This document shows positions 12,570-45,762 of a stretch of 64,000 nucleotides of DNA, in pieces. Numbering within the stretch: the stretch's first letter is position 1; each line of letters opens with the position of its first letter. Source of the DNA: a virus; the IMG/VR virus record IMGVR_UViG_3300032722_000006, positions 64,001 through 128,000 of that record, one strand, 5' to 3'. The notes under the pieces are model-generated. The model saw only the letters and a program-made list of their open reading frames with translations. It was not told where the DNA came from and searched no databases. A program made the position numbers and the translations under genes.

Positions 12570-12661
12570 TGGTGGACCGCCAGGGAGTCGAACCCTGCAG
12601 TTATGCCGTATCAGAGCGTCGCGGAGGTATAAAACCCGCCCGGGCAACCGACCCGCGGTCC
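12570..12661 (-). tRNA. tRNA-Ile(UAU) with long variable arm
   Basis: Acceptor GGACCGC/GCGGTCC-A-CCA, loop TT-TAT-AC, T-loop TTCGACT. Confidence 0.7.
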
Positions 12662-21217: not shown

Positions 21218-21290
21218 TGCCCCCGGAAGGAATTGCACCTTCGACATCCGGTTTCGAAGACCGGCGTTCTTTCTGCTGAACTACGGGGGC
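21218..21290 (-). tRNA. tRNA-Arg(UCG)
   Basis: Loop CT-TCG-AA. Confidence 0.9.
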
Positions 21291-21291
21291 G

Positions 21292-21639
21292 TGGGTGGTA
21301 CGTAAGCGGGATTTTGTCTAGGATGATCATTCCTCTGTGATGTGTGTCACCACACATCTATAGCAACAACCCGCATGCTCGGGCGAACAGCCCTCAAACG
21401 CACACTGTTTGTCTTGCTCCGGGAGGGACCCCTTACCGTCTGCATTGCTGCATTCGTGGTGGGCTCTTACTCCACCGTTTCACCATCACCTGATCCTCTT
21501 TTGTGAGGCCATCGGCTGTCTTTTCTCTGTTGAGTCTTCCGTCACCTTGCGATGCCCAGTCGTTAGCTGGTTCCCTGTTCTATGGAGTCCCGACTTTCCT
21601 CTGCGCGTATAGTACGCAGCGATCATCTTTCTCCACCCC
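21292..21639 (-). ncRNA. rnpB: RNase P RNA (bacterial type A-like)
   Basis: GAGGAAAGTCGGGAC and ACAAAATCCCGCTTA P4 halves, ACAGAGAA, GGTGAAACGGTGGAGTAAGAGCCCACC, GGAGCAAG, terminal P1 pairing, about 350 nt. Confidence 0.93.
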
Positions 21640-21641
21640 TG

Positions 21642-23288: not shown

Positions 23289-23375
23289 TGCATTCGATGG
23301 GACTCGAACCCATAAGCCTCGTCAGAGGCGCCAGCCTTTTTGTCGGCCCGCGTATGCCATTTCCGCCACGAATAT
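23289..23375 (-). pseudogene. Leu-type tRNA with irregular anticodon arm
   Basis: Leu-like D, V and T arms, anticodon region GGCC-GACAAAAA-GGCT. Confidence 0.55.
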
Positions 23376-43907: not shown

Positions 43908-43983
43908 GTAAGATGCTGCTGACTCCCGGGAGGCGAACGCCTCCACTCGAGAGGCGTGAATTCGTCTCTCTAGGACTCAGCGG

Positions 43984-44056
43984 TGGAATTGAAGGGATTC
44001 GAACCCTCTACCTCCTGCATGCCGTGCAGGCGCTCTCCCAATTGAGCTACAATCCC
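43984..44056 (-). tRNA. tRNA-Ala(GGC), C33
   Basis: G3:U70, loop AC-GGC-AT. Confidence 0.88.
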
Positions 44057-44057
44057 G

Positions 44058-44134
44058 TGGACCCGGAGGGAGTCGAACCCTCAATCACGTAGGTTCCATT
44101 GTCGGCTTTCCTATGTGACTCGCCTTTCAGGCCC
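44058..44134 (-). ncRNA. tmRNA-TLD-like small RNA (alanine acceptor, no anticodon arm or message region)
   Basis: GGGCCTG/CGGGTCC-A with G3:U70, stemless D loop AAAGGCGAG, long helix, canonical T arm. Confidence 0.65.
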
Positions 44135-44178
44135 TTTTACGCCGAGTGAAACACAACCGCACTGTGCCATGGCGTTAG

Positions 44179-44251
44179 TGGAACTCACGGGATTCGAACC
44201 CGTCGCCTCCTGCGTGCAAAGCAGGCGCTCTCCCAAATGAGCTAGAGTCCC
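44179..44251 (-). tRNA. tRNA-Ala(UGC)
   Basis: G3:U70, loop TT-TGC-AC. Confidence 0.92.
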
Positions 44252-44286: not shown

Positions 44287-45042
44287 TTACTGTAAGCCTG
44301 CCTGTTGCGTGATCGTCTGAATCGCCGCTGTTCCCCTGACATTGGACATCCCAAGGTCGATGAGTACAAGCGTGCCGTCGTCTCTTTTCATCATGTTGCC
44401 GGCATGGTAGTCGTGAAAGTCAATGCCAAGTTCCGTGAGAGTCTCGAACAATCCCTTCACACCGTACTTCTTGACTAGGAGGCTCCACTGTTCGTTTGCG
44501 TGTGCGATGAACTTCTGCGCTTCAGGTGAGGTGAAAGACTTGAACTTCTTCTTTGCAGTTTCCTTGATGTGTTCCTTCGTGAGTTCCTTGACCTTGTCCC
44601 AGGAGCCTCCTGCACGTTTGACCCAAAGCGGAAATGCTGTCGTCACAAGTGCGTCATTAAACGATTTGCCTTCTTCTGCGCTGATAGTTTGCAACTTTTC
44701 TTGCAGGATCGCGAATGTACCCGTGTCGCCTAGGCTCCATACGCCGTAAAAATTCACAACTCCGCTGACGTTCTTTCCCACGAGGATTGATGCTGCGTGC
44801 GCTTCTTTGCCGTCGTTCGTGACCTTGAGAACCTTGTCGCCTACCTCGAAAACTGTACCCCGCGTGCCCGTACCGATCGGTTGTAATGAATCAACGTCCT
44901 TGATTCCTAGTTTCGCCGCACCTTTCGGAAAGCGTTTGAGAAGTTCTTTCGCCTCATCGGGCGTCACGGGCTTGTTTTCCTTCGCCTCGAAAATGAGTGC
45001 CTCACGCACGAGTCGACGAAGACGTCCTAGCTTGATTCTCAT
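44287..45042 (-). CDS. protein-kinase-like fold enzyme with LRRLVRE leader
   Basis: IGTGTRGTVF, VLKVT, DYHAGN, LIDLG. Confidence 0.8.
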   Translation of the reverse strand: MRIKLGRLRRLVREALIFEAKENKPVTPDEAKELLKRFPKGAAKLGIKDVDSLQPIGTGTRGTVFEVGDKVLKVTNDGKEAHAASILVGKNVSGVVNFYGVWSLGDTGTFAILQEKLQTISAEEGKSFNDALVTTAFPLWVKRAGGSWDKVKELTKEHIKETAKKKFKSFTSPEAQKFIAHANEQWSLLVKKYGVKGLFETLTELGIDFHDYHAGNMMKRDDGTLVLIDLGMSNVRGTAAIQTITQQAGLQ

Positions 45043-45593: not shown

Positions 45594-45616
45594 GCTAGAT
45601 AGTACCCCACCCGTTG

Positions 45617-45686
45617 AGCCCAAGGTTGGAGTTGAACCAGCGACCTCCCAGTGGATACCGGGCGCTCTGCACTGAGCTACGTGGGC
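45617..45686 (-). ncRNA. tRNA-like gene with 6-nt anticodon loop
   Basis: Cloverleaf intact, CCCGG-TATCCA-CTGGG. Confidence 0.6.
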
Positions 45687-45688
45687 AG

Positions 45689-45762
45689 TTGCAAAGGAAG
45701 GGCTTTAACCTCCGACCTCCGGGCCATTACGCCCGGCGCTCTCTCTCCTGAGCTACTTCGCA
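45689..45762 (-). ncRNA. tRNA-like gene with 8-nt anticodon loop
   Basis: CCGGG-CGTAATGG-CCCGG, T loop TTAAAGC. Confidence 0.6.

Follow-up and report, generated by a model that had tools for sequence, protein, structure and literature searches.

Genomic context of the element

The window analysed here is a 64,000-nt stretch (positions 64,001 to 128,000) of a 145-kb IMG/VR virus record, IMGVR_UViG_3300032722_000006, which is estimated to be 39% complete. ARAGORN called 51 tRNA genes in the window, in two arrays that both lie on the minus strand. A 77-nt gene, called the mini-tmRNA below, lies at 44058-44134 between two tRNA-Ala genes, as the first-pass annotation had stated, and its coordinates and strand were confirmed when read from the sequence. 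ARAGORN identified the upstream neighbour as tRNA-Ala(UGC) and the downstream one as tRNA-Ala(GGC). The end of tRNA-Ala(UGC) is separated from the mini-tmRNA by 43 nt, and the mini-tmRNA is separated from tRNA-Ala(GGC) by one base (C, 44057). The features of the locus, in the order of transcription, are as follows.

44178-44251, minus strand: tRNA-Ala(UGC), upstream neighbour of the mini-tmRNA (ARAGORN; Rfam tRNA model, 64.6 bits)
44058-44134, minus strand: whole mini-tmRNA gene, 77 nt, from G1 to the discriminator A (read from the sequence; 65.5 bits on family model R1 and 48.1 bits on family model R2)
44128-44134, minus strand: acceptor stem, 5' strand GGGCCUG, with G3 at 44132 (7/7 pairs with 44059-44065)
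44119-44127, minus strand: D region AAAGGCGAG, stemless, 9 nt, with a conserved GG (unpaired in the fold)
44110-44118, minus strand: 5' strand of the P2 (H2-like) helix (9 bp, one A.C mismatch)
44094-44109, minus strand: apical module, comprising internal loop AAAG, stem CCG, tetraloop ACAA, stem UGG and AA (by homology)
44085-44093, minus strand: 3' strand of the P2 helix (pairs with 44110-44118)
44083-44084, minus strand: connector UU, where canonical members have (G)GAC (model alignment)
44066-44082, minus strand: T arm GAGGG-UUCGACU-CCCUC, perfect (read from the sequence)
44058-44065, minus strand: acceptor stem, 3' strand CGGGUCC, with U70 at 44061, and discriminator A at 44058 (read from the sequence)
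44057-44057, minus strand: single C between the mini-tmRNA and tRNA-Ala(GGC), which would be C74 of the CCA end (read from the sequence; a C follows the discriminator in 75/78 family members)
43982-44056, minus strand: tRNA-Ala(GGC), downstream neighbour of the mini-tmRNA (ARAGORN; Rfam tRNA model, 60.3 bits)

Other genes of the arrays were also recorded. A full-length gene for a bacterial type-A RNase P RNA (21287-21640, minus strand; 224 bits, model positions 1-367) was found within the first tRNA array, adjoining tRNA-Arg(UCG) and tRNA-Leu(CAA); judging from this gene, the phage appears to carry its own ribozyme for tRNA 5' processing. In addition, ARAGORN reported a 92-nt tRNA with anticodon UUA, which would read UAA (12570-12661, minus strand), and irregular anticodon loops in three tRNA-shaped genes (23289-23375, 45616-45686 and 45688-45762, minus strand). 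An ORF of 251 aa inside the tRNA array (44287-45042, minus strand) is kinase-like: it matches the ABC1 atypical kinase domain weakly, at 19.4 bits, which is below the cut-off of 22.9.

Standard detectors did not identify the mini-tmRNA. ARAGORN called neither a tRNA nor a tmRNA at 44058-44134 and found no tag, and the cut-off of the Rfam tRNA model was not reached there. The comparison with the Rfam tmRNA model (RF00023), which the first-pass annotation had proposed, gave an end-to-end match with the middle skipped, but at 14.9 bits against a gathering score of 47 bits. Three ordinary tRNAs of this genome, for Ala(GGC), Gln and Pro, score higher on this model (18.7-22.8 bits), so the score is non-discriminating for the window copy and was dropped as a test of its identity. 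A match to the YrlA (Y RNA-like) model at 44030-44088 (30 bits; cut-off, 69 bits) was set aside as an artefact of two adjoining tRNA-like pieces, namely the T arm of the mini-tmRNA and the D arm of the tRNA that follows.

Architecture of the mini-tmRNA

Each feature that the first-pass annotation had listed is present in the sequence and fold: the acceptor stem with its G3:U70 pair, A73, the D region without a stem, the long helix, the 2-nt connector and the perfect T arm. The acceptor stem has seven pairs of seven, including G3:U70 and a U6:G67 wobble. G3:U70 and A73 are determinants of alanyl-tRNA synthetase (AlaRS; Hou and Schimmel 1988, as reviewed in PMC3968760), and a reduced, stemless D loop together with a tRNA-like T arm is a defining feature of the tRNA-like domain (TLD) of tmRNA (PMC3968760). 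When folded without constraints, the mini-tmRNA reached -30.1 kcal/mol (z = -2.4 against shuffles) and showed no anticodon arm; the minimum free energy fold lengthens the P2 helix to 11 bp, consuming the 2-nt connector. The length of 77 nt leaves no room for the pseudoknots PK1-PK4.

The stretch that had been described as a 16-nt loop does have this length, but it is not an open loop: it consists of an internal loop (AAAG / AA) and an ACAA tetraloop on a 3-bp stem, CCG/UGG. In the model alignment, the D region corresponds to the GGUUUCGAC D loop of canonical family members, without its UUCGAC. The joint UUCGAC...GGAC at the base of helix 2 is absent, and the window copy reads GAGUC ... UU instead. 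Both components of the tmRNA elbow, the T loop and the D-region GG, are still present.

Homologues in other phages

The 25 nt that form the T arm and acceptor 3' strand of the mini-tmRNA recur unchanged at the 3' ends of true phage tmRNAs of the one-piece and the permuted type. Relatives of the window phage were traced through the kinase-like gene (44287-45042), which is conserved with 54-61% identity in four related jumbo-phage contigs. One relative, G001 (340 kb, 99% complete), contains a 77-nt homologue that occupies the equivalent place in its array, flanked by tRNA-Ala genes on both sides, and this homologue has been kept even though the neighbouring kinase is only 58% identical. Compared with the window copy, its acceptor stem has C4:G69 changed to G:C and U6:G67 changed to U:A, with both positions still paired; its long helix is different yet paired, and its apical sequence is identical. 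Genes for tRNA-Ala also adjoin the mini-tmRNA in G002, L183 and L195. In contrast, G014 (91% complete) and G015 (86% complete) have the kinase gene and no mini-tmRNA, which indicates that it is dispensable or accessory. In the syntenic spacer of G014 (L028 5172-5298), a look-alike of the apical sequence was found, but it had no model match.

The apical sequence combined with a T-loop anchor served as a search key in viral, metagenome and prokaryotic collections. Further members came to light on 16 viral and 27 metagenome contigs, and the four matches in prokaryotic genome assemblies were all due to chance, without a tRNA-like domain. Scans with the exact 5' 16-mer returned chance matches only, in coding DNA, and those with the bare apical 14-mer returned mostly chance matches. 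Many of the viral carriers are Streptomyces phages of cluster BE, such as Jay2Jay, in which the element lies between tRNA-Val and tRNA-Leu (KM652554 87505-87584) and is unannotated. Altogether, 44 Streptomyces phage records matched, and the mini-tmRNA is unannotated in those cluster BE records. Publications credit the cluster BE phages with 'one tmRNA'; these phages therefore hold two tmRNA-derived genes, since the unannotated mini-tmRNA adds to the published one.

The apical module AAAG-CCG[ACAA]UGG was identical in G001, the Streptomyces BE phages and the metagenome contigs despite their differing helices. This invariance is partly a search bias, because all copies other than that of G001 were retrieved by the apical sequence itself.

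A family of TLD-only tmRNAs

Because the apical sequence had been a search key, we used a loop-independent scan for TTCGAC and GGAC motifs, 22-52 nt apart, together with the start of the T arm, and at least 120 contigs matched. Among the matches listed, 78 of 96 distinct sequences had the full tRNA-like domain. In these listed complete members, G3:U70 was found in 77/78 and A73 in 78/78, with the acceptor stem lying outside the search pattern, a C followed the discriminator in 75/78, and the full CCA was encoded in 19. The tips of the loop-independent members vary while their pairing is kept (e.g., CCG[CACG]CGG, CCA[CAAG]UGG and CCC[GUGA]GGG). The family comprises at least 98 distinct TLD-only members of about 78 nt, and the connector is GAC in 77 of 98. 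Canonical members, with their GGUUUCGAC and GGAC motifs, score 55-76 bits on the Rfam tmRNA model, above its cut-off. In ten whole contigs with a canonical mini-tmRNA, six of them genomes at least 96% complete, it was the sole match above this cut-off. In the window clade, GAGUC-like sequences stand for UUCGAC at the elbow, and two pyrimidines stand for the (G)GAC connector.

Two covariance models were built. On R1, made from 96 members, the window mini-tmRNA scored 65.5 bits, the flanking tRNA-Ala genes 34.8 and 32.8 bits, and every other tRNA of the window less than 25 bits. R2 is a held-out model made from the loop-independent set alone, without the window element, its clade or the published TLD-only tmRNA of mycobacteriophage DS6A. 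On R2, DS6A scored 60.9 bits, the G001 copy 53.4 bits, the Jay2Jay copy 50.0 bits and the window copy 48.1 bits, which is about 21 bits above the better of the flanking tRNA-Ala genes (27.0 and 25.4 bits). The best tRNA in any source searched reached 36.8 bits.

The first-pass annotation had also called for homologues with covariation, and compensatory changes were seen in many phages. In a model-based alignment of the 98 distinct members, 95.1% of cells were paired, compared with 67.3% in shuffles, and changes on both sides were present in 18/23 pairs (P2, 8/8; T arm, 4/5; acceptor, 4/7; mini-stem, 2/3). The covariation score was 0.668, compared with 0.136 when shuffled and at most 0.088 with slid partners. 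This alignment was fitted to the model, and pairing of the acceptor stem and T arm had been a selection criterion, while that of P2 and the mini-stem had not. The module of internal loop and 3-bp mini-hairpin covaries across the family, and the window version, CCG[ACAA]UGG, contains a G.U pair. A conserved reading frame was not found in the 98 members; a stop precedes the T arm in only 13-30 of them, depending on the frame. The window mini-tmRNA is a member of this phage family of TLD-only tmRNAs, and is neither a chance fold nor a decaying tRNA. The tRNA-like domain of a tmRNA, with alanine identity and no message, that the first-pass annotation had proposed is borne out by the family membership, the covariation and the lack of a conserved frame.

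Two further kinds of gene were noted. A 95-nt mini-tmRNA with a far longer P2 helix was found on two viral contigs, at L230 11908-12002 and L242 11235-11329 (plus strand), with 51 bits on the family model. A 68-nt tRNA-like gene with G3:U70, a normal D arm and a shortened anticodon region was found at L225 4992-5059 and L227 12825-12892; each of these contigs also holds a canonical mini-tmRNA.

Partner genes and co-occurring tmRNA

A gene for SmpB was not found in the window's fragment, G001, G002, G003, Jay2Jay or DS6A, so any SmpB-dependent action in these carriers would use the host protein. Similarly, a gene for a CCA-adding enzyme was not found in the window's fragment, and peptidyl-tRNA hydrolase was not found in the five genomes searched. 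Full-length tmRNA genes were identified alongside the mini-tmRNA in Jay2Jay (97949-98233, tag ANSNVAFALAA) and in G001 (309390-309751, tag ANDNGALPLRLAA). In addition, proteins of 198-207 aa with an RF-1 domain are encoded in G001 (L323 1453-2076, minus strand) and G002 (L322 1450-2046, minus strand), two jumbo-phage relatives whose mini-tmRNAs belong to the window subfamily, and a counterpart was not found in the window's 145-kb fragment. These proteins have the PPT motif and GGQ and no N-terminal domain; with these motifs they are RF1-like, and their identification as ArfB was ruled out.

Functional interpretation

The window element is a real, conserved and folded tmRNA derivative, with alanine identity and without a tag, in a tRNA operon. 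From its features we infer expression, processing, charging, SmpB binding and an effect on trans-translation. The explanation that we favour, with somewhat more than even confidence, is that it is a functional, message-less TLD-only mini-tmRNA gene of the DS6A family, which most likely competes with host trans-translation. The mini-tmRNA would be transcribed within the minus-strand tRNA array, and RNase P would free its 5' end. Its 3' end (...A-C) might be set by the RNase P cut of the tRNA-Ala that starts one base downstream, and the CCA end would be finished by the CCA-adding enzyme of the host. Host AlaRS could then charge the RNA with alanine via G3:U70 and A73. The product would compete with the full-length tmRNA of the host, and with any of the phage, for SmpB, EF-Tu and stalled ribosomes, and tagging for proteolysis would be blocked or bypassed during infection. 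The mini-tmRNA cannot add a degradation tag itself, since the resume codon, the reading frame and the stop are all missing from it.

Descent from tmRNA, which is suggested by the 25-nt identity with the 3' ends of full phage tmRNAs and by the GGUUUCGAC and GGAC motifs of the canonical members, was counted for this competition reading. Membership of the family, the covariation, the alanine identity, the missing tag and the reliance on host SmpB were counted for it as well. The inhibition of tmRNA by a DS6A-type molecule in E. coli, as cited in PMC4131195, was taken as a functional precedent; that this molecule was an engineered one weighs on the other side. SmpB binds at the elbow of canonical tmRNA and grips the single-stranded D loop (PMC3968760). 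Binding is less certain for the window clade than for canonical members, because the UUCGAC/GGAC joint of the elbow has been replaced. Furthermore, the presence of a full-length tmRNA with a normal tag beside the mini-tmRNA in Jay2Jay and G001 fits poorly with a pure off-switch of trans-translation, and the absence of the mini-tmRNA from G014 and G015 counts against the favoured reading, as it indicates that this RNA is dispensable.

A productive, tag-less rescue would make use of the same structural features and is compatible with the coexisting full tmRNA of Jay2Jay and G001. Here the alanyl-mini-tmRNA, with SmpB and EF-Tu, would move into the vacant A site of a ribosome on a non-stop message and take over the nascent chain; the peptidyl-RNA would be released by drop-off or hydrolysis, the ribosome would be recycled, and a protein with one additional alanine would escape degradation. 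A parallel is offered by PMC11915505, in that mitochondrial tmRNAs without a coding sequence (CDS), kept together with SmpB, are thought to aid incomplete mRNAs. However, no linked release activity was found: peptidyl-tRNA hydrolase was missing from the five genomes searched, and the RF-1-domain proteins of G001 and G002 are RF1-like rather than ArfB-like and absent from the window's fragment. The sole experiment on record (PMC4131195) reports inhibition rather than rescue. We consider productive rescue rather unlikely.

The window subfamily, formed by the jumbo-phage relatives and the BE phages, may have left simple competition with tmRNA and become an RNA that is charged with alanine and recognised, at its apical module, by a partner of its own, although we give this only a slim chance. 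The subfamily may no longer be a simple competitor because the UUCGAC/GGAC joint is lost, the apical module is identical, and a full tmRNA stands alongside in at least two genomes. The same loss of the canonical elbow joint and coexistence with full tmRNA, and an apical module that is identical in G001, the Streptomyces BE phages and the metagenome contigs with their differing helices, would suit a role independent of SmpB, in which the RNA acts as a non-ribosomal alanine donor or as a decoy or ligand read through the apical module by a phage or host factor. This role seems decidedly improbable, since the invariance is in part a product of the search, the loop-independent set varies at this site while keeping its pairing, a candidate partner was not found, and the GG of the tmRNA elbow and the T loop have been retained.

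A pure processing signal (t-element), that is, a tRNA-shaped structure marking the RNase P and RNase Z cuts in the array transcript, might be expected in a polycistronic tRNA array with a phage RNase P RNA gene nearby. It is very improbable in view of the punctuation already provided by tRNAs 1 nt and 43 nt away, of the near-invariant G3:U70, A73 and following C, which RNase P cleavage does not need, and of the conservation of the P2 helix and apical module as well. The sub-threshold scores on the Rfam tRNA and tmRNA models, the location among tRNA-Ala genes and the two relatives without a mini-tmRNA (G014 and G015) would agree with a tmRNA pseudogene, a chance fold or the decaying tRNA-Ala that the first-pass annotation had named as its refutation, but such origins are scarcely tenable, being contradicted by compensatory changes in every helix across 98 distinct homologues, by retention at the same array position in G001 and beside tRNA-Ala genes in G002, L183 and L195, and by the roughly 21 bits that set the mini-tmRNA apart from the flanking tRNA-Ala genes on the held-out model.

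Several further ideas were examined and rejected. The apical GCC GAC AAU GG is similar to ANDNG, with which the G001 tag begins, but it was rejected as a remnant resume region because an in-frame stop is missing, third positions vary no more than the other two, and different sequences occupy this site in the wider family. A short frame that opens with AUG and closes in the P2 3' strand occurs in the window copy and several members and is missing from many. A pseudoknot of a GGC in the D region with a GCC in the apical module was discarded, since this GG is the one typical of the elbow and the apical CC is already paired in the mini-hairpin. Antisense pairing of the apical module with the phage full-length tmRNAs was limited to matches of at most 5 nt.

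Implications

Trans-translation is the main ribosome-rescue and protein quality-control pathway of bacteria. If the mini-tmRNA acts on this pathway without a tag, a phage could spare proteins made from damaged messages or re-route rescue. If the window subfamily does have a partner of its own, this would be a second, distinct phage hold on stalled ribosomes or on alanine transfer. The earlier record consists of one phage, known since 2009, with a function given only for an engineered analogue. The present analysis adds scale, with at least 98 distinct members, and an architecture backed by covariation. It also brings to light dozens of cultured cluster BE phages of Streptomyces with an unannotated mini-tmRNA in addition to a full tmRNA. 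With cultured BE phages and laboratory hosts, the role of a tag-less tmRNA in infection is directly testable.

Comparison with known systems

The closest known system is the tmRNA of mycobacteriophage DS6A, which Hudson et al. (2014) entered as "TLD only" (PMC4131195). The 2025 tmRNA database paper (PMC11915505) repeats this entry and counts nine "Standard, no CDS" sequences, and both cite Mao et al. (2009) as the source. According to PMC4131195, an engineered DS6A-like molecule strongly inhibits tmRNA in E. coli, perhaps via titration of SmpB, so that the SmpB-decoy idea has already been published for a molecule of this type. The first-pass annotation had cited protist mitochondria as the precedent; CDS-less organellar tmRNAs are indeed known, but it overrated the novelty, as a TLD-only tmRNA was already reported from a phage in 2009 and RNAs of this form are common among phage contigs.

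We located the DS6A RNA at JN698994 28478-28560 (tmRNA Website tmID 11587 / Phage__Mycobacterium.9). Like the window copy, it is phage-encoded and about 80 nt long, has a T arm and an acceptor with G3:U70 and A73, and lacks both a D stem and a tag frame; its short P2 helix ends in an A-rich internal loop and a 3-bp mini-hairpin. Both match the same held-out model R2 (60.9 bits for DS6A and 48.1 bits for the window copy), and SmpB was found in neither genome. They differ at the end of the D loop, which is (U)CGAC in DS6A and GAGUC, with a UU connector, in the window copy, and in the apical hairpin, which is CCG[CACG]CGG in DS6A and CCG[ACAA]UGG in the window copy. The DS6A RNA is a lone gene among protein genes of a 60-kb temperate phage, whereas the window copy lies in a 51-tRNA array of a jumbo phage, and their scores on the Rfam tmRNA model are 43.2 and 14.9 bits, respectively.

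One-piece tmRNAs (RF00023) share with the window copy the G3:U70 acceptor, A73, stemless D loop, T arm and P2 helix off the elbow, and the 25-nt 3' end is identical to those of several phage tmRNAs. In contrast, they are 285-490 nt long, compared with 77 nt for the window copy, which is below the Rfam gathering score and is without pseudoknots, a resume codon or a tag ORF with a stop. The CDS-less tmRNAs of organelles (jakobids, oomycetes and Mallomonadaceae; RF02544), as described in PMC11915505, also consist of the TLD only, without a tag frame, and in both cases the presumed action needs SmpB from another source. Unlike the window copy, a phage gene in standard order, they are usually circularly permuted and descend from the bacterial ancestor of the organelle, and the homology shown here is that of the TLD. 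The tRNA-Ala genes have the acceptor identity elements and T arm in common with the window copy, which lies with the Ala isoacceptor genes in the array. However, the window copy has no D stem, anticodon arm or anticodon and is below the cut-off of the Rfam tRNA model, and on the family models it scores 20-30 bits more than tRNA-Ala genes.

Taken together, the kind of RNA found here is already published, and the window copy is a somewhat divergent further member rather than a new class. New beyond the DS6A papers are the apical mini-hairpin, the unannotated copies in BE phages, the occurrence of mini-tmRNA and full tmRNA together, and the lost elbow joint.
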